A DNA stretch of 45,268 nucleotides from Candidatus Moraniibacteriota bacterium (GTDB lineage: Bacteria > Patescibacteriota > Minisyncoccia > Moranbacterales > UBA1568), in assembly GCA_028688415.1 (NCBI GenBank), contig JAQTYF010000001.1, positions 530,627-575,894 of the forward strand. Direction: 5' to 3'. The notes below the pieces were generated by a model. The model was not told the origin of the DNA, did not search any database, and was given only the letters and a program-made list of their open reading frames with translations. Shown piece after piece: positions 3-36,830 of this stretch; positions within the stretch are counted from its first letter, which is position 1; each line of letters opens with the position of its first letter. A program made the position numbers and the translations under genes.

Positions 3-2012
3 AGTCGCTACGAAGACTATTCGCACATCACGCCAATAGATTCTCTTGCATCCGACGCGAAATGTACCATAGAAGGAACAGTGCTCCATATCGAAGCTGG
101 ACAAACCTGGAAGAAGAAAATGTTTCTCACTGAAGTGACACTCGGAGACGAAAGTGGTCAGGTACGGCTCATCTGGTTCAATCAGCGTTTCGTCGCCCAG
201 ACACTGAGAGACGGTGCTCTTATCCGTGTTTCAGGAAAAGTCAGTATTGATAGCAAAGGTCTCGTCATGACCAACCCTGCATTCGAACGGGCCTCGCGTG
301 AAGCGACCCATACCGGACGCCTCGTCCCTATTTACCCAGAGACAGCAGGGCTCACTTCTCGATTTTTTCGTTGGCAACTCGCTGGTATTTTTCAGAAGCT
401 AGCTCTCTTTCCAGATCCGATACCAGAAGACATCCTCACAAAACTTCATCTCCCCTCTCTCAAACAGGCTCTTTTCTACATTCATTTTCCAAAAGATGAA
501 AATCAATCCCTCATCGCTTTAAAACGTTTTGCTTTTGATGAAATGTTCTTCATCCAACTCAAATCCCTCGAACTCAAAGCGCTCTTTGAAACGGCAAAAG
601 GAACACCTATTCCTTATGATGAATCCTCTCTCAAACAATTCATCGCATCATTTCCTTTCCGTCTCACGACAGCTCAAGAAAAAGCTTCTCAGGAAATCCT
701 TCTCGATCTCAGTAAAACACACCCAATGAACAGACTCCTCAATGGAGATGTGGGGAGTGGAAAAACAATCGTGGCAGCCATCGCTTCGTTTGTCACAACA
801 GAGGGTGGGTATCAGACTGCCATCCTCGCACCGACTGAGATATTGGCACGTCAGCATTTTGAGAGTCTCTCACGTATTTTCTCACATACTGGTCATACTC
901 TTGCGCTCTTGACGGGGAGCTATCACATACTCGGAAGAGAGACGGTCAAAAAGCAAACACTCATCCAAGCAATCCACGCAGGTATCCCCTCTCTTGTTAT
1001 TGGGACACACGCTATCCTCCAGCAAGACGTCGTCTTTCACAATCTCGCACTCATCGTCGTGGACGAACAACATCGATTTGGTGTGTCTCAGAGAGCACGT
1101 CTCCAGGAACTTTCTTTCAATAGTCATGATGGATCGACAGAACATATTCCGCATTTCCTTAGCATGACAGCTACTCCTATTCCTCGCACACTCACGTTGG
1201 CTTTTTTTGGCAATCTCGATCTCTCGCTTCTCGATGAACTTCCGAAAAATCGCAAACCAATTATCACCAAAATTGCTCGCACTGGAAGTGATCGAGAAAA
1301 AGTCTACACATTTGTACAGAGTGAAGTCATGAAGGGTCGTCAGGTATTTGTCATCTTTCCGCTTGTCGAAGAATCACTCGCTCTCAAAGATATCAAGGCG
1401 GCCGTCGCAGAGCACAAGCATCTTGCAGAAACTGTCTTCCCACATCTCTCTATCGGGCTCATCCATGGAAAACTCAAGGCCAAAGAGAAAGAAGAAATCA
1501 TGCAAGATTTTCATGAAAAGAAATATGATATATTGGTCGCTACAGCGGTGGTCGAAGTCGGTATCGATATTCCCAATGCGAGTGTTATCATCATTGAAGA
1601 AGCTGAACGATTCGGTCTTGCACAACTCCATCAATTCCGTGGACGTGTCGGTCGTGGAGAACATCAGTCTTACTGTTTTCTCTTTCCTCACGAGCAAGCG
1701 AGTTCTATCAGTGAACCTGCCCGAAACGCTTCGCTTAACGATGCGGGCGGGCGACTGAAAATACTCGAAAAATCGACGAGTGGATTCGAGATTGCTGAAG
1801 CCGATCTCGGTGTGCGCGGTCCTGGAGCTTTCTTTGGTACGCGTCAGTCAGGTCTCCCTGATATCACGATGGAGAGCCTCACGAATATCAAACTTATCAC
1901 CATCGCCCGTGATGAAGCACAAAATATCCTTTCCCAAGATCCGAAACTTGTTTCACATCCTCTTCTCAAAGAAGCTCTGAAAAAATTCGAAGAAAGAATT
2001 CATCTGGAATAA
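3..2012 (+). CDS. recG: ATP-dependent DNA helicase RecG, 5' end cut by window edge
   Basis: The frame is open from nt 3 (SRYEDYSHITPIDSL...), upstream of the track GTG at 81. Walker A GDVGSGKT, DEQH box VVDEQHRFG, and QLHQFRGRVGRG motif are present. Confidence 0.9.
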   Translation, partial: SRYEDYSHITPIDSLASDAKCTIEGTVLHIEAGQTWKKKMFLTEVTLGDESGQVRLIWFNQRFVAQTLRDGALIRVSGKVSIDSKGLVMTNPAFERASREATHTGRLVPIYPETAGLTSRFFRWQLAGIFQKLALFPDPIPEDILTKLHLPSLKQALFYIHFPKDENQSLIALKRFAFDEMFFIQLKSLELKALFETAKGTPIPYDESSLKQFIASFPFRLTTAQEKASQEILLDLSKTHPMNRLLNGDVGSGKTIVAAIASFVTTEGGYQTAILAPTEILARQHFESLSRIFSHTGHTLALLTGSYHILGRETVKKQTLIQAIHAGIPSLVIGTHAILQQDVVFHNLALIVVDEQHRFGVSQRARLQELSFNSHDGSTEHIPHFLSMTATPIPRTLTLAFFGNLDLSLLDELPKNRKPIITKIARTGSDREKVYTFVQSEVMKGRQVFVIFPLVEESLALKDIKAAVAEHKHLAETVFPHLSIGLIHGKLKAKEKEEIMQDFHEKKYDILVATAVVEVGIDIPNASVIIIEEAERFGLAQLHQFRGRVGRGEHQSYCFLFPHEQASSISEPARNASLNDAGGRLKILEKSTSGFEIAEADLGVRGPGAFFGTRQSGLPDITMESLTNIKLITIARDEAQNILSQDPKLVSHPLLKEALKKFEERIHLE

Positions 2013-6072: not shown

Positions 6073-6243
6073 CTTTATTACCTCTTTCTTGTGTAAAAAA
6101 ACTCCAATGTTTTCCGAAAAGAAAACTCTTACAGTATACAGAATATGCTTCTTTTTGCAAAAACTTGATTTTTTTGTGCTTTCTGATAGACTCTCTATGC
6201 AGGTTGACCTGCTTTTTCTTTGTTCCACAAAAATCGAGAATAT

Positions 6244-6278
6244 GGCCTCATCGTCTATCGGTTAGGACACCAGGTTTT
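6244..6278 (+). pseudogene. Duplicated 5' half of tRNA-Glu (acceptor 5' strand, D arm, 5' anticodon stem)
   Basis: 6241-6278 is identical to 6571-6608. After CCAGGTTTT it diverges into two small GC hairpins (CACCCAAAGGGTG, CCACCCTCTGGGTGG). No 3' half is present. Confidence 0.85.
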
Positions 6279-6569: not shown

Positions 6570-6573
6570 TTAT

Positions 6574-6645
6574 GGCCTCATCGTCTATCGGTTAGGACAC
6601 CAGGTTTTCATCCTGGGAAGAGGGGTTCGACTCCCCTTGAGGCTA
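6574..6645 (+). tRNA. tRNA-Glu (anticodon UUC)
   Basis: Hand-folded cloverleaf: acceptor GGCCTCA/TGAGGCT, anticodon arm CCAGG-TTTTCAT-CCTGG, T arm AGGGG-TTCGACT-CCCCT. Confidence 0.9.
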
Positions 6646-14833: not shown

Positions 14834-14861
14834 CACAATTACATCAAAAAATGAATAAAGG

Positions 14862-14909
14862 GGTGGCCATCGTTCAATGGCAGGTCCGCCAGTTGGCGGA
14901 TTGTGGTAC
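14862..14909 (+). pseudogene. Partial 5' pseudo-copy of tRNA-His with a palindromic hairpin insert
   Basis: 14847-14884 matches 14918-14955 apart from one position in the 5' flank (a14851 versus g14922); this covers the 5' flank, acceptor 5' strand and D arm. TCCGCCAGTTGGCGGA then replaces ACAATGGT, TTGTGGTAC follows (matching 14964-14972), and no 3' half is present. Confidence 0.8.
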
Positions 14910-14932
14910 AAAATTTAAAAAGTGAATAAAGG

Positions 14933-15004
14933 GGTGGCCATCGTTCAATGGCAGGACAATGGTTTGTGGTACCATGAATCAGGGTTCGATTCCCTGTGGC
15001 CACC
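14933..15004 (+). tRNA. tRNA-His (anticodon GUG) with encoded G-1
   Basis: G-1 pairs with C73. Acceptor GTGGCCA/TGGCCAC, anticodon arm ATGGT-TTGTGGT-ACCAT, T arm CAGGG-TTCGATT-CCCTG. Confidence 0.85.
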
Positions 15005-17330: not shown

Positions 17331-17754
17331 GTTCATTTGTGCGCTCGGCCCGCTTCGACCGATATCTCATCGAGGCGAGAGGGGATCTCCTTCGACTAAA
17401 CTTTTGAGGAGAATGGAATCGGTCACAGATAACTTATTCGCCGACGCTCATAAATTTCCGCGACCCCAGCTCGTGGTTTCGTGTACTCACGAAACATCAC
17501 TCCGCTTTTCTCTCCCCTACGCAAGCCAAGCAGTTGGCTTGCTCCGAGCGACTATTCACTTTGTTCATTTGTGCGCTCGGAGGGGATCTCCTTCGACTAA
17601 ACTTTTGTCGACACAAAAGTTTGTCTAGGCACCGTCTCACGATTTTGTCTGCTGACAAAATATCGTTCTGACGTTCGATCCCCTACGCAAGCCAAGCAGT
17701 TGGCTTGCTCCGAGCGACTATTCACTTTGTTCATTTGTGCGCTCGGAGGGGATC
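17331..17754 (-). repeat. Array of repeated and inverted copies of the tRNA-Arg 3' end plus flank
   Basis: Perfect 75-bp direct repeat at 17514-17588 and 17680-17754; the latter overlaps the last 17 nt of the tRNA. A third partial copy at 17331-17406 is split by a 31-nt hairpin (17349-17379). Confidence 0.85.
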
Positions 17755-30776: not shown

Positions 30777-30965
30777 TACCCAAGTTTGAATACCATTCTA
30801 AGTGACAAAAAACAAGGCTTGTTACAGACTCTCCTCCTAGGTCATAATTACAGCGTATTATGTTCTGAAACACTGCAATTGGACAATACTCTCAATAGCC
30901 ATTTCAAACCGCTCGCGATAATCCTTATTAAACAGATTCAGTCTACTCTGGATACTTTCTCGTGT

Positions 30966-31116
30966 AAAAAAACAAGAAAACCCATCTTGCGACGAGTTTC
31001 AATGTCCCTCCACGGCGGATAAACCTGCCCGAAATGCTACGCCCGCCAGAAACGCTGTATCTACTGCGGGCTGGCATAACGTTGCAGATGGGCTTACAGC
31101 ACTTTCCTGAAGAAAA
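30966..31116 (-). repeat. Element E1 (5'-truncated copy with modules A then B on the plus strand) ending in a terminator
   Basis: Shares terminator, GACATTGAAAC and CTGTAAG blocks with E2 and E3. A is at 31007-31024 and B at 31025-31093. Terminator stem is 30981-30996. Confidence 0.8.
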
Positions 31117-31118
31117 TA

Positions 31119-31147
31119 TTGACAAAAATCAATTTTAGGTGTATACT
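31119..31147 (+). promoter_or_regulatory. Consensus sigma-70 promoter facing the toxin gene 3' end
   Basis: TTGACA (31119-31124), 17 nt, TATACT (31142-31147). Confidence 0.6.
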
Positions 31148-31153
31148 GTATCT

Positions 31154-31208
31154 ATTAGTGGCTTCGGCCTCCGAGGACTCATCTGTAAAGGTGGGTCCGA
31201 TTTTTTTT
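31154..31208 (+). ncRNA. Candidate ~55-nt small RNA convergent with the toxin gene
   Basis: Downstream of the consensus promoter. UUCG-capped hairpin, then a 7-bp stem (31175-31181/31192-31198) followed by GA + T8. The 3' end overlaps the toxin stop codon. Confidence 0.45.
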
Positions 31209-31614
31209 AGAAACAGTCTTTGAGTCGCTTCAATACTTCGATGAAACTTTCTTCTGAAATTACTCCAACTTTTCTGAGGATGCGTTTAGAGCTCCATAAT
31301 CGCAATTGAGAAAGATTCGCATACGATACTCCTTTTGAATGTGCAACCTTCACTATATAAGGATTTTCTTTCGCCTTTGAAGTAAGTGGAATTCCCCAAA
31401 ACATCAGTCCGTTAAACTTCTTCACAAGTAACACTGGTCGTTCAAAATCATTATTCTTTCCATCAATCTCTACACCAACATTGATCCCGATTGCACACCA
31501 CCACACTTCACGTTCGTGAATAAAGAGATCTCGATCAACAGATTTTTTGTCTGTTTGCTTTTTCTTTTCATTCCACTTATCAAAGTTTTTTATATATTCG
31601 ATAATGTGTTTCAT
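31207..31614 (-). CDS. MazF/PemK family endoribonuclease toxin (N-terminally extended subfamily)
   Basis: EREVWWCAIGINVGVEIDGK..RPVLLVKK...GIPLTSK and ANLSQLRLWSSKRILRKVGVIS match the MazF/PemK core. No adjacent antitoxin-sized ORF. Confidence 0.8.
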   Translation of the reverse strand: MKHIIEYIKNFDKWNEKKKQTDKKSVDRDLFIHEREVWWCAIGINVGVEIDGKNNDFERPVLLVKKFNGLMFWGIPLTSKAKENPYIVKVAHSKGVSYANLSQLRLWSSKRILRKVGVISEESFIEVLKRLKDCF

Positions 31615-31642
31615 ATTTTTGTTTACACTACTTACATATAGT

Positions 31643-31672
31643 ATAATACAACATTTCGAGAAAAAGTGTCAA
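31643..31672 (-). promoter_or_regulatory. Toxin gene promoter
   Basis: Minus strand TTGACA-18 nt-TATTAT. Same architecture and leader as lexA. Confidence 0.6.
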
Positions 31673-31690
31673 GAGAGAAAACATTTTTTG

Positions 31691-31880
31691 AAAAACAAGA
31701 AAACCCATCATAAGATGGGTTTCAATGTCCTGCCCGCAATGCTACGCCCGCCAGAAACGCTGTATCTACTGCGGGCTGGCATAACGTTGCAGGCGGGCCC
31801 TCCACGGCGGATAAACTTACAGTACTACTTGAAGAAATTCCCCTCCATAGGTGGACTCTATCTTGGGGTAGAGTGCGTCC
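31691..31880 (-). repeat. Element E2 (full copy, modules B then A on the plus strand, plus an extra A-like 15-mer)
   Basis: B at 31730-31798, A at 31799-31816, extra CCTCCATAGGTGGAC at 31842-31856. Terminator CCCATC-ATAA-GATGGG at 31704-31719. Confidence 0.8.
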
Positions 31881-32077
31881 AAATTATTTACAGAATTATT
31901 CTGTTCCTTAAGTGTGGAAATACCTAATTCTTAGACTTTAAACTATCCAAAACTTCCCTAAATAAACGAATTTACATACTATTGGAAATGGTGTCCTTTG
32001 ATGTTTTTTTACTATCTCCATGCAGAAACTCTACAATTTTATTATACACCCTCCCAATCAAAGCCACGAATCCATAT

Positions 32078-34459
32078 TTATTGATAAAAACTTTTTATAA
32101 GGCTGTTGTATTTATTGTTCAATTGATTTCGTGTAACAATTCTTGCATTGAATGCCTTTCTATCCTTTTCGAAAGCATTATATGCTTTTTTATACTTGGA
32201 GAAATAATCGATATAATCATCATAATTGTTCGGCGTAAGATTTTTTTCGAGTTTTTTTATCTTATTTATCATTCTGCTGATTTCTTGATCTTGACTCTCT
32301 AGGTCCCTATCCGAAGCATACAGTTCCCTGTCCATCCTTCGTATCGTAGAGAGGAGGTTGTCGATTTCTTTTTGCGTATTTACCGTATCGATGATTCCAG
32401 TATAGACAAGTCCATTTGTCTTATTCAAAACCTCAATCTTCCCGAGAGGACTTGATGCATCTTCGGTTGCATCCGTTCCGTAATCATTGAGTACAATTTC
32501 CGATGCAGCGATTCCTGACTCCTTTATGATGCTTGGTGTAGATCCGATTTTATTCCCCAAACTTGTAGTCTCCAGGAAGCAGTACCCTGAATCATAATTT
32601 GAGTATTCCTGAGGGCATTCTACTCCTACTGCTATATGTTTATCTTCAGGAAAAAGGAAAAAAGAAGTACCGAACCCTAACTCTCTCAAAAGTAAGTAGG
32701 CGAGATAGCTTTTATCCTGGCAGACGCCTTTGTTTTCATAGAGAACTTCATATGGATACGTTGGTCTTTCGCTTATGCCGTTCAATCCTGCTTCTCTATT
32801 ATTAAACTTCTCGAAATCGTACGGGATAGTTTGGACGAGTGAGGTGACAAGCTCAGCCAACTGATTGTCATTGAAGTTATTCTTGTCACCAATAGCTTTT
32901 AATGATTGTGCGAGATCTTTTATGGTTGCGTCTCCATTTACTTCTCTCAGATAGGCATCATTATTCTTTTCCCACCAACCGACTGCAGACTCTCCGTTAA
33001 AGAGAGCGCCACTCGGTGATGACTGATAAAAGTTATAGTATGAATCATATAAACTCAAATCTAAAGAGTAGTTTTTCCCCTTATACTTCCACGAAAATGG
33101 AACTACTTTTTCGCCTCCTGGATCTGGTAGAATTCGTCCATCTTCACCGCTTATAAACTCGAGCCCATTCACGATCCACTGATTCCTAGCCACACGAAGC
33201 ATAGATATATCGAAACCACTTCCCGTTCCACTTTGTTCTCTACCGATTGCTATATGAGCCGAAGAACCATCTACTGCTTTTTTTTGAATCTTTAAACCGT
33301 GAATCATTCCGTTCTTCTCTTCATTGATTCGGACTACCATCGTATTCACCCACTCCTCCAGATCGTTATTTGAAAATGAAGCAGAATTTGACACAACTAT
33401 CACTCCGTTGGTTATTTCAGACTGAATAGTGGCGGTACTCACGAGCTGACCACCGAAATAGATTGCGAGAGTGCTGCCTACATTTTCTTTCGTTACATCA
33501 CTCAATATCGCACTCCCCTCACTATCAAACTCCAACAGTATCGCCATTTCCTTATTTGAATAATCAACCTGTGCAGACTTGAGCAGTTTTCCTGTAAGCC
33601 CAGTTGGAATAAATATTTCGGCATTCTTAGCAACTTCCGAATTCTGTTTTTTAATCTCTAGAAATGAAGTATTGAAAGTCTTGAAAAGAGAGGCAACTGA
33701 TTGATCAGATGTTTCACCGAAAACTTTTGTAGTAACATCAGCGTGAAGATATTTCTCCACCTCAACAACGTTTTCCGAAACGATGGCTTTCTTTATTTGG
33801 TATAAAGTATATTCTGGAGTTCCTATGATGTAAAAGATCACGGCTACAGAAATGAGCACTATAACAATAACACTGCCGAAGATTACTTGTAACAATTTTA
33901 TCTTCCCTTCTCTCTCTTTGCTGACATATGTATATATGAGCGCAGATATAATAGGAATGAATATCCCTATTAAAGTCGCAATAGGGGTATTCAACTGTAA
34001 ACGCTTTGCTATCTTTCTACAGTAAGAAACGCTCAATATCCATAAAGAAAGAGCTGCTAAAATAAAAAAGGATATAACATCCTTCATTTCTGGCGAAGTC
34101 ACTTTCAGTAAATCTGATATTTTCGGTATGCCGATATTCCAAGAAAGTAATATTGCAACAATTGTTCCTATTGCCCAAAAAAACCACAGGAACGATTTCA
34201 CTCCAGCCATTCTCTTCTTTATTATTGAGAAGATGCTAAACCCTAGAGTCAGAAGCCCAAACACTATGACAACTCTCCAGATATTTATTACTTCTACAAA
34301 CGCTTTGGTTTCATCATTCAAGTTCTGAGCATTCATTAGCAAGGTTGAACAAAAGAGAAGAAACCCAACAGAAAACACAGACGCTATAATGAAGGCCTTC
34401 ACAATGTCTAATTTTTTACTCCAAAGAAGTTTTACGAACTGCAACATACCAATTCTCAT
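32078..34459 (-). CDS. Large polytopic membrane protein with transglutaminase-like Cys-protease core and C-terminal coiled coil
   Basis: N-terminal multi-TM region, KGVCQDKSYLAYLLLRELG (TGase-like Cys) followed by DKHIAVGV and CFLETT, and a coiled-coil tail. Confidence 0.6.
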   Translation of the reverse strand: MRIGMLQFVKLLWSKKLDIVKAFIIASVFSVGFLLFCSTLLMNAQNLNDETKAFVEVINIWRVVIVFGLLTLGFSIFSIIKKRMAGVKSFLWFFWAIGTIVAILLSWNIGIPKISDLLKVTSPEMKDVISFFILAALSLWILSVSYCRKIAKRLQLNTPIATLIGIFIPIISALIYTYVSKEREGKIKLLQVIFGSVIVIVLISVAVIFYIIGTPEYTLYQIKKAIVSENVVEVEKYLHADVTTKVFGETSDQSVASLFKTFNTSFLEIKKQNSEVAKNAEIFIPTGLTGKLLKSAQVDYSNKEMAILLEFDSEGSAILSDVTKENVGSTLAIYFGGQLVSTATIQSEITNGVIVVSNSASFSNNDLEEWVNTMVVRINEEKNGMIHGLKIQKKAVDGSSAHIAIGREQSGTGSGFDISMLRVARNQWIVNGLEFISGEDGRILPDPGGEKVVPFSWKYKGKNYSLDLSLYDSYYNFYQSSPSGALFNGESAVGWWEKNNDAYLREVNGDATIKDLAQSLKAIGDKNNFNDNQLAELVTSLVQTIPYDFEKFNNREAGLNGISERPTYPYEVLYENKGVCQDKSYLAYLLLRELGFGTSFFLFPEDKHIAVGVECPQEYSNYDSGYCFLETTSLGNKIGSTPSIIKESGIAASEIVLNDYGTDATEDASSPLGKIEVLNKTNGLVYTGIIDTVNTQKEIDNLLSTIRRMDRELYASDRDLESQDQEISRMINKIKKLEKNLTPNNYDDYIDYFSKYKKAYNAFEKDRKAFNARIVTRNQLNNKYNSLIKSFYQ

Positions 34460-34654
34460 TATTGACTATAAGCGTATGGCGTATTCTTTCTTATGACGTC
34501 TATCTCTACGCTGACCAGAAAAAATGACCTTCAGAATCTCCTTTCTACCCCACTGACGAATAATATTTTGGTAGCATTTTGATTCCGTAACATTAGCTAT
34601 CTTATTATACACCCGAAATACTTCTAAACTAGTATATATCAAATTTTCTTCCAG

Positions 34655-34741
34655 AAAACAAGAAAACCCGTCTTGCGACGAGTTTCAATGTCTTACAGTA
34701 CTACCCGAAGAAATTCCTTTATCTTGGGGTAGAATGCGTCC
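34655..34741 (-). repeat. Element E3 (module-free copy), downstream of 16S, ending in a terminator
   Basis: Minus strand GGACGCATTCTACCCC..GGGTAGTACTGTAAGACATTGAAAC + CTCGTC-GCAA-GACGGG + UUUUCUUGUUUU. Confidence 0.75.
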
Positions 34742-34919
34742 AAATTATAAACAATTCATAATCTTTTGCGGTTAGTCCTTTTCGTAAGGTCTCTAGTTTT
34801 ATTATGTTTCATTGCTAGAAATGCTCTCGCCTAAGCGTCGGCACTTAATTATACAATGAACGACCATAATGGTTGTGAACCTGATTTTGAGTCAGAATTC
34901 GTACACCTTTATCTCCCTA

Positions 34920-36418
<1,499 letters not shown>

Positions 36419-36830
36419 AAATTCAATCCAATTCTACCCGAAGGTAGAAAAAAAATTCAATTTAGTTGATAGCATCACTGCTATCGAATAGAGATTCTTC
36501 CGTGTAATTCACCACGCGATTTACCGAAGTAAATTTTGCGTGGCTTCTTACAATTATTTTCTCTCTTCTGAGAATTGAATCTCTGAAGAAAAGAAAACAA
36601 GGACTAACCACAAAAAATTGTGACTATATTGTTTATTGTTTTGTTTTACTTCCTTCACGAGGGTAAATGAAGTAAAACTCTTTGGCTCAATTGTTAAAGA
36701 AAATTTCACCCGTTTTATCATTGAGATCTACTCAATAAAAAAGTCAGCCCGAGGCTGATCCGCCAACTGGCGGAAAAAACAAAGAGAAACAAAAGCAAAC
36801 TTGAGCGTTTATCTCATAGGTTGCTTCACC

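Follow-up and report, generated by a model that had tools for sequence, protein, structure and literature searches.

How can the same two short DNA modules come to lie in opposite orders at what appears to be a single insertion site? The question is raised by a 45,268-nt stretch (hereafter, the window) of contig JAQTYF010000001.1 from a Candidatus Moraniibacteriota bacterium, which contains three copies of one backbone, denoted E1, E2, and E3, each ending in a predicted intrinsic terminator on the minus strand. On the plus strand, with slashes marking module borders, E1 carries an 18-nt module (A) followed by a 69-nt module (B) in the order GTC/A/B/TTACAG, E2 carries them in the order GTC/B/A/TTACAG, and E3 has nothing at the junction. 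With high confidence, we conclude that B represents a family of mobile palindromic DNA repeats, GC-rich and non-coding, that is distributed across the ultra-small bacteria of the candidate phyla radiation (CPR, or Patescibacteria), and that A and B do not together form one RNA.

In full, the E1 junction reads ..TTTCAATGTC/CCTCCACGGCGGATAAAC/CTGCCCGAAATGC..CAGATGGGC/TTACAGCACT.., that of E2 reads ..TTTCAATGTC/CTGCCCGCAATGC..CAGGCGGGC/CCTCCACGGCGGATAAAC/TTACAGTACT.., and the empty site of E3, which is unique in the window (34683-34702), reads ..TTTCAATGTC/TTACAGTACT... Both A and B are in direct orientation in E1 and E2, as is the B loop, and inversion of a module was rejected as a candidate on these grounds. 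The two copies of A (CCTCCACGGCGGATAAAC) are identical, and two matches to this motif were detected in the window as compared to 0.02 expected from shuffled sequences. The two copies of B differ at 3 of 69 positions (31032, 31088, and 31089), and their 45-nt core was likewise matched twice in the window when none was expected. All module joints are C/C or C/T, such that the borders can slide by 1 nt; borders defined by a covariance model of the B family fall at 31024-31092 and 31729-31797. A preliminary description of this locus had reported the same coordinates, sequences, module orders, and empty E3, along with the identity of the A copies and the three differences between the B copies, and all of these observations hold. 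We also agree with its argument that plain duplication fails to explain a permuted arrangement, and its suggestion that a small inserted element was involved is borne out.

Since the B repeat is longer than typical k-mers, the arrangement could in principle reflect an assembly artifact in which repeated B was collapsed or mis-joined. However, Logan unitigs from two other read sets (SRR22315503 and SRR22315507) cross every A-flank and A-B joint with 100% identity to the window, reading ..GGGCAG/GTTTATCCGCCGTGGAGG/GACATTG for E1 and CTGTAA/GTTTATCCGCCGTGGAGG/GCCCGCC for E2. Because these independent unitigs span the joints, the order of A and B is not an artifact of assembly, a scenario whose probability we consider to be negligible.

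A scan of 185,579 species genomes, for which only the stem of the B core (both halves) served as the query, matched at least 120 stretches. Among the matches listed, those in GC-rich genomes were due to chance and had unrelated loops; of the 49 listed in low-GC loci, one or two were chance matches (L027 and probably L095), and the remainder were family copies. The genomes that host the B family carry Patescibacteria, Kazan, Moran-, Collier-, Falkow-, Curtiss-, Nomura-, and Saccharibacteria labels, and often encode several copies each. The 14-nt loop, which was left unconstrained in the query, is nearly invariant (AAACGCTGTATCTA, or a 17-nt variant), and identity within the family is ~85-97% among genomes labelled with different CPR candidate-phylum names. 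BLAST homology to other genomes coincides with the borders of B at either end and leaves out A in every case. Collectively, these observations show that B is a separate, widespread, multi-copy module.

The basic unit of the family is a 36-nt imperfect palindrome (CCYGCC..GGCRGG), the arms-only form of which (CCTGCCCGCAATGCTTC-GC-ATAGCGATGCAGGCGGG) is also found alone. The 69-nt form is this unit with a 33-nt hairpin in its loop, in either orientation, and the 33-nt hairpin itself resembles the outer unit. In approximately one-third of copies the outer arms are reverse-complemented relative to the core, and other forms include triple nesting, abutting copies (the elements in L048 abut with zero spacing), and a core located outside its arms. 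GCTAC before or GTAGC after the inner hairpin was identified in most copies, although not in all. The main length classes (36, 69, and 72 nt) are multiples of three, and shuffled sequence yielded no match. B copy 2 corresponds to the family consensus with the exception of one substitution (ATAACG for ATAGCG) that is also present in copy 1; because this private substitution is shared, the two B copies are considered sisters. The three differences that distinguish copy 1 from copy 2 weaken pairing. In the 62 kb of source genome that were covered, the B covariance model identified four copies: the two copies of B, a 36-nt copy at 1716-1751, and a 36-nt copy outside of the window in a tRNA D-loop. 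The last of these (L140:2110-2175, on the same contig) lies within a duplicated 5' tRNA fragment that is positioned ~60 nt upstream of the intact tRNA.

Family members demonstrably insert into the loops of hairpins, as well as beside or within GC-rich motifs that resemble them. Abutting inverted repeats of at least 5 nt accompany 16% of family copies as compared to 3% of controls, and abutting direct repeats of at least 5 nt accompany 16% of copies as compared to 2% of controls, with irregular lengths of 5-14 nt. The recG and tRNA D-loop copies are located at palindrome centers. The flanks of B-family copies share no common target motif and no target duplication of constant length. Miniature inverted-repeat transposable elements were considered as a candidate class, as inverted-repeat ends are present, and were rejected, as the flanking direct repeats are irregular and a constant target-site duplication is lacking. 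Clustering of open reading frames (ORFs) in the 8-kb flanks of 43 copies revealed no recurrent transposase or recombinase. Screening of IMG/VR viral contigs for the B core returned only chance matches in GC-rich phages, and a protein database search with the peptide encoded by the repeat returned only five short ORFs. Neither a described CPR palindromic element nor the B sequence itself was found in the open-access literature, outside of which most subscription journals lie. Short palindromes of the form GTCATT(G/C)C..GCAATGAC or ATTCCCGCG..CGCGGGAAT recur beside or around family copies at several loci of different CPR genomes (L040, L053, L056, L067, L084, and L117), which hints at further module families.

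B behaves as DNA and not as RNA. The preliminary description had noted that B folds into a hairpin, and on the minus strand each copy of B alone does fold better than shuffled sequences (z = -3.1 and -3.8); the corresponding values for A and B jointly are just -1.4 to -2.3. It had further anticipated that a structured RNA would yield homologs of A+B with covarying pairs when searched with a covariance model. Homologs of B were indeed recovered from dozens of CPR genomes, but A+B units are not among them and the arms do not covary. The mismatches of the imperfectly palindromic outer arms occupy fixed positions (3/67, 7/63, 12/58, and 17/53), and the arms flip as a block; upon flipping, U-G turns into C-A, which indicates that pairing is not kept by compensation. 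Across 24 distinct copies, arm pairing was 84.8% as compared to 88.2% in column shuffles, and both partners had changed in 1 pair as compared to 4.5 in shuffles. Searches against Rfam 15 identified no relevant family and no ribozyme, whether the entire window was screened at the gathering threshold or 30800-32000 at E ≤ 10, and the best match came from the terminator. Permutation of a tRNA or transfer-messenger RNA was rejected because ARAGORN identified only ordinary tRNAs, and the small self-cleaving ribozymes (hammerhead, twister, pistol, hatchet, and hepatitis delta virus-like) are disfavored because neither covariance-model matches nor compensatory helices were detected and A and B do not co-occur.

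The distribution of family copies with respect to genes points in the same direction. Copies occur in either orientation relative to genes and also between genes, and approximately one-third of those sampled are in frame inside long reading frames. Proteins that host in-frame copies, as identified with Pfam, include Cob adenosyltransferase, ArgRS, ATP synthase epsilon (AtpC), GyrB, UvrA, YchF, MnmA, peptide deformylase (Def), ThrRS, and TsaD, and several of these copies fall within a Pfam domain. The copy in recG of the window is an insertion in a linker, where the RecG sequences of 1GM5 and 9WM0 are gapped. In-frame copies use only stop-free frames and, for the most part, one whose product is a small, polar peptide, which fits translation and purifying selection. 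The conserved peptide added by such copies reads PARNA(T/S)PARNAVSTAGW..AGG. One locus (L081:3-2339, minus strand) codes for a CPR GyrB that contains an intein in addition to an in-frame 69-nt copy near its N terminus.

The evidence on A comes from homologs of E. On the minus strand, A is positioned at the junction GTAA/GACA, and the hairpin of the E terminator follows 8 nt downstream. In another organism (L158), the downstream E carries a homolog of A (GTTTACCCGCCTGTGGAGG) directly before GACACGG with no B, and the junction of the upstream E is empty; at the same junction, L157 carries a different insert of 37 nt that starts with GTTTACCCG. The termini of A (CCTCC..GGCGG) resemble those of the B family. 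The possibility that A or the 37-nt insert is a decayed member of that family was nevertheless rejected, as the B covariance model gave no significant score on L157 or L158. A is absent from the flanks of all other B-bearing loci examined, and the 15 exact matches to the A 18-mer in metagenomes of the Joint Genome Institute (JGI) are unrelated chance matches. Because the A homolog of L158 lacks B, and because an A-like 15-mer (CCTCCATAGGTGGAC) is present elsewhere in E2, A is considered optional and independent of B. A is thus an 18-nt part of the terminator module E that can be absent and is probably older than B; A occurs without B, B occurs without A, and the junction is hypervariable.

E1 and E2 bracket a PemK toxin gene and a small RNA. 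With L and R denoting the left and right halves of E1 and E2, the minus strand is arranged as R2-A'-B'-L2-(PemK toxin, small RNA)-R1-B'-A'-L1, in which L1 and R2, on the outside, are E3-like, and L2 and R1, on the inside, have diverged. The terminator stem of the E2 left half carries compensatory changes. The small RNA features a UUCG hairpin and a terminator, and no antitoxin ORF was detected upstream of the toxin gene. Toxin homologs with 82-96% identity, accompanied by the same RNA, were identified in nine other loci (L157-L165) in unrelated gene contexts, which indicates that the toxin/small-RNA cassette is mobile. Across these loci the small RNA is nearly invariant and shows a single compensatory pair, located in the stem of its terminator. 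At three other places, terminator modules in direct repeat flank the cassette; these are E homologs in L157 (2160-2276) and L158 (262-372 and 894-998), and a module of another type in L165 (1-130 and 820-948). Judging from these sequences, the cassette may integrate at, or duplicate, terminators, and the ~55-nt convergent RNA is a candidate RNA-antitoxin for the PemK/MazF toxin. No integrase adjoins the cassette in the window.

We tentatively favor an origin of the permuted order by stepwise insertion of B at either edge of a pre-existing A, although we stop just short of calling it probable. E1 and E2 would both have carried A at the junction already; B would then have inserted at one edge of A in one of the E copies, and a sister B would have inserted at the opposite edge of A in the other. 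As A sits at the junction, both insertions would look like one site and the order would look circularly permuted. We infer that the events took place in this sequence and that B moves as hairpin DNA, with a preference for hairpin loops and for the ends of similar GC-rich motifs. Several points weigh against this explanation. Two insertions at the exact edges of A require a target preference, and no flanking motif defines one. No transposase or recombinase recurs in the 8-kb flanks of family copies. The 62 kb covered are part of a source genome of ~0.94 Mb, in which A-B-A arrays or a lone A may be present elsewhere. Finally, the mirror symmetry around the toxin cassette, with its E3-like outer and diverged inner halves, also fits a single rearrangement.

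Such a rearrangement would have accompanied integration of the toxin/small-RNA cassette, through exchange between an E3-like chromosomal site (R2..L1) and a cassette-borne E-like site (R1..L2). Three routes can be envisioned, all of which would duplicate A and B in mirror order: B × B recombination of an A-B-A in the chromosome with a B on the cassette, A × A recombination in which the cassette carried B-A-B, or staggered breaks that arose at the borders of the two central segments and were then filled in. The halves of E diverge as this scenario would predict, since the outer halves are closer to E3 (41 of 46 positions in L1 and 63 of 69 in R2) than are the inner halves (37 of 46 in L2 and only ~22 nt in R1). 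The cassette is mobile, being found in unrelated contexts, and in other organisms it is bracketed by direct repeats of terminator modules (L157, L158, and L165). Abutting direct repeats of up to 14 nt flank some B-family copies, which renders an A-B-A state plausible, and identical copies of A together with B copies that differ at 3 of 69 positions are compatible with the same age of both. However, each version of the scenario requires an intermediate that was not observed (A-B-A, B-A-B, or an E site with only B at the same junction), and no integrase lies beside the cassette in the window. Moreover, the upstream E of L158 is empty and A is present only in its downstream E, which indicates that the central segment was not duplicated there by simple integration. 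Overall, we regard a single rearrangement as unlikely, if the principal alternative.

A circular intermediate, which the preliminary description had listed beside an A-B-A ancestor among its explanations, would require the fewest events, namely two integrations of an 87-nt A+B unit at GTC/TTAC, with the circle opened once at the B/A joint and once at the A/B joint. The uniformity of the joints (C/C or C/T) is in keeping with this idea, as is the observation that the E backbone is older than either A or B (0% and 4% different, respectively, as compared to ~16% for the left halves), and hairpin-recognizing single-strand transposases of the IS200/IS605 type use circular intermediates. Nonetheless, A was never found beside B in other B-bearing loci, the exact A 18-mer had only chance matches in metagenomes, a homolog of A occupies the same junction without B in L158, and the circle-forming systems that are known reopen at one fixed joint; an 87-nt circle is accordingly improbable. 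Still less probable, and clearly disfavored, is the proposal of the preliminary description that A and B comprise one structured RNA, such as a self-cleaving ribozyme, with a fold that tolerates circular permutation. Permuted ribozyme topologies exist, the B hairpin folds better than shuffled sequences, and both copies lie shortly before a terminator, in a stretch that looks transcribed. These properties are outweighed by the absence of an Rfam match, the modest z-scores of A+B, the lack of conservation of A with B, and the lack of covariation in arms that flip as a block with their mismatches kept. The presence of copies in both orientations and in frame within coding sequence is also difficult to reconcile with a single RNA. 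Stepwise insertion of B at the edges of A remains the explanation that we prefer, with the permuted order reflecting events at the DNA level in a hot spot within the terminator module.

Table 1. Coordinates of the E, A, and B modules and of associated features in the window.
Feature	Position	Strand	Description
B copy 1 (in E1)	31025..31093		69-nt nested GC-rich palindrome; covariance-model match 31024-31092, 82.7 bits
B copy 2 (in E2)	31730..31798		Covariance-model match 31729-31797, 94 bits
A copy 1	31007..31024		18-nt motif between the E1 terminator half and B
A copy 2	31799..31816		Same sequence as copy 1; between B and the E2 right half
A-like 15-nt insertion	31842..31856		CCTCCATAGGTGGAC; in the E2 right half, relative to E3; no adjoining B
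E1 left half	30968..31006	-	Predicted intrinsic terminator; 41/46 aligned positions identical to the E3 left half over 30960-31006
E1 right half	31094..31117	-	Likeness to E limited to ~22 nt
E2 left half	31691..31729	-	Predicted intrinsic terminator; 37/46 aligned positions identical to E3 over 31683-31729
E2 right half	31817..31900	-	63/69 aligned positions identical to E3 over 31817-31903, apart from the 15-nt A-like insertion
E3, empty form	34650..34760	-	16S rRNA gene trailer; junction between 34692 and 34693
Third B-family copy	1716..1751	+	36-nt arms-only form, in frame in recG; encodes PARNASLNDAGG
PemK/MazF-family toxin gene	31207..31614	-	Pfam PF02452; between E2 (upstream) and E1 (downstream)
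Promoter and small RNA	31119..31208	+	Promoter TTGACA-17-TATACT, then small RNA (~55 nt) and its terminator; convergent to the toxin gene

The window is part of a bacterial chromosome and contains a 16S rRNA gene as well as tRNA genes, and several other features of it and of its relatives were noted. The 16S rRNA gene (34921-36417, minus strand) is followed by E3 and then by protein genes, not by a 23S gene. It is surrounded by a 25-nt inverted repeat with 88% complementarity (34756-34780 and 36599-36623) that is probably the 16S processing stem. The stretch between E3 and E2 contains a gene of 793 amino acids (32078-34642, minus strand) with a match to SecDF_P1_head and a 58-amino acid ORF upstream, and DNA similarity to a relative (L155) extends ~120 nt beyond the start of the gene into this ORF. 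Relatives of the 793-amino acid gene, the best of which is 60% identical, adjoin an HTH_17 gene, a primase, an AAA_25 protein, and a large serine recombinase, and neither E nor B was identified near them. Because these relatives reside in integrative elements, the E3-E2 stretch looks like the remnant of an integrative element. Repeats also involve several tRNA genes. The 5' half of tRNA-Glu is exactly duplicated over 38 nt (6241-6278 and 6571-6608), and the ~290 nt between the copies encode a 48-amino acid GIY-YIG fragment, which looks like an element that inserted at the anticodon loop and brought a replacement half. A 39-nt repeat (14846-14884 and 14917-14955) comprises the upstream flank and 5' part of tRNA-His, and a 119-nt tandem repeat with 86% identity (17470-17588 and 17636-17754) overlaps the 3' end of a tRNA-Arg gene on the minus strand. 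A comparison of L140:7148-7413 with L142 revealed a strain-level indel, in which an intergenic stretch of ~265 nt in the NCBI assembly is lacking in a SRR22315509 contig that belongs to the same species.

To our knowledge, almost nothing is known of the mobile DNA of CPR genomes. The results presented here replace a permuted-ribozyme reading of this locus with a DNA-level explanation, and document a selfish hairpin repeat across many CPR candidate-phylum labels, including inside of essential genes (recG, gyrB, uvrA, argS, and def). Repeats of this type can mislead gene calling, binning, and the discovery of RNA motifs. Translation of in-frame copies, if it occurs, would add a loop of 12-24 residues to conserved enzymes, and the near-identity of copies in distant hosts points to gene flow across the CPR. 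In addition, the PemK/MazF toxin, the conserved convergent small RNA, and the terminator repeats together constitute a testable candidate for an RNA-antitoxin cassette. A more far-reaching idea, which we advance as speculation and consider quite unlikely, is that the B family represents undescribed, CPR-specific, hairpin-targeting selfish DNA that copies itself via single-stranded or cruciform DNA into hairpin loops (its own included, in either orientation) and into the frames of essential genes, and that is exchanged between phyla. In a bolder version of this idea, in-frame copies may be removed or bypassed at the level of RNA or translation and not be translated.

How does the B family compare to systems that have been described previously? 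Its sole likeness to permuted ribozymes (hammerhead types I-III and twister P1/P3/P5) is the presence of two modules in either order, and it differs in that A+B lacks a family match, a consistent association of A with B, and covariation. The integron attC site offers another parallel, as attC sites are imperfect palindromes of 57-141 nt with strand-marking mismatches that flank small promoterless or toxin cassettes, and the B copies in the window bracket a toxin cassette. However, on inspection the ends of B lack the RYYYAAC/GTTRRRY core boxes, and no integrase gene was identified in the flanks examined. A cassette-boundary role of the attC kind does not suit copies that lie in frame in housekeeping genes, and B is not regarded as an attC site.

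Repetitive extragenic palindromic (REP) sequences and the bacterial interspersed mosaic elements (BIMEs) that they form share further properties with the B family. Both comprise imperfect palindromes of ~35 nt with conserved mismatches, and mosaics with short non-palindromic motifs are comparable to A beside B. A GTAG/CTAC tetranucleotide, which in REPs is conserved next to the palindrome, abuts the inner hairpin of the B family often but not always. The palindromic units of the B family, at 33-38 nt and in multiple copies, are also of REP/BIME size. REPs lie outside of genes, tend to be restricted to one species or genus, occur next to one another, and are linked to a gene for a REP-associated tyrosine transposase (RAYT) of the Y1 HUH type. 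The B family, in contrast, is nested and is not strictly extragenic, being found inside genes, and no RAYT-type gene was seen in the 8-kb flanks of its copies, which the clustering covered. A similar habit is known from fungal mitochondria, in which GC clusters, double-hairpin elements, and 'byp' elements are GC-rich mobile hairpins of AT-rich compact genomes that occupy spacers, variable parts of RNA genes, and protein genes. These elements, which we liken to the B family by description and which have no known relationship to it in sequence, differ in that they are organellar and that some are bypassed in translation.

The closest known behavior appears, by analogy, to be that of the Rickettsia palindromic elements (RPEs), which are short palindromes that occur both between genes and in frame in many unrelated housekeeping genes, where they add a conserved peptide (PMC10969869). 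The B family is likewise found in the reduced genomes of host-dependent bacteria, occurs both between genes and in frame within unrelated conserved genes, and encodes a conserved peptide. The likeness is one of behavior. RPEs are ~150 bp in length and restricted to Rickettsia, whereas members of the B family span 36 or 69 nt, nest within one another, are GC-rich although their host genomes are AT-rich, and are found in the CPR. B thus belongs among the small, mobile, palindromic repeats for which in-frame insertion is also known, and what is unusual about it is its self-nesting and its spread among many CPR lineages.

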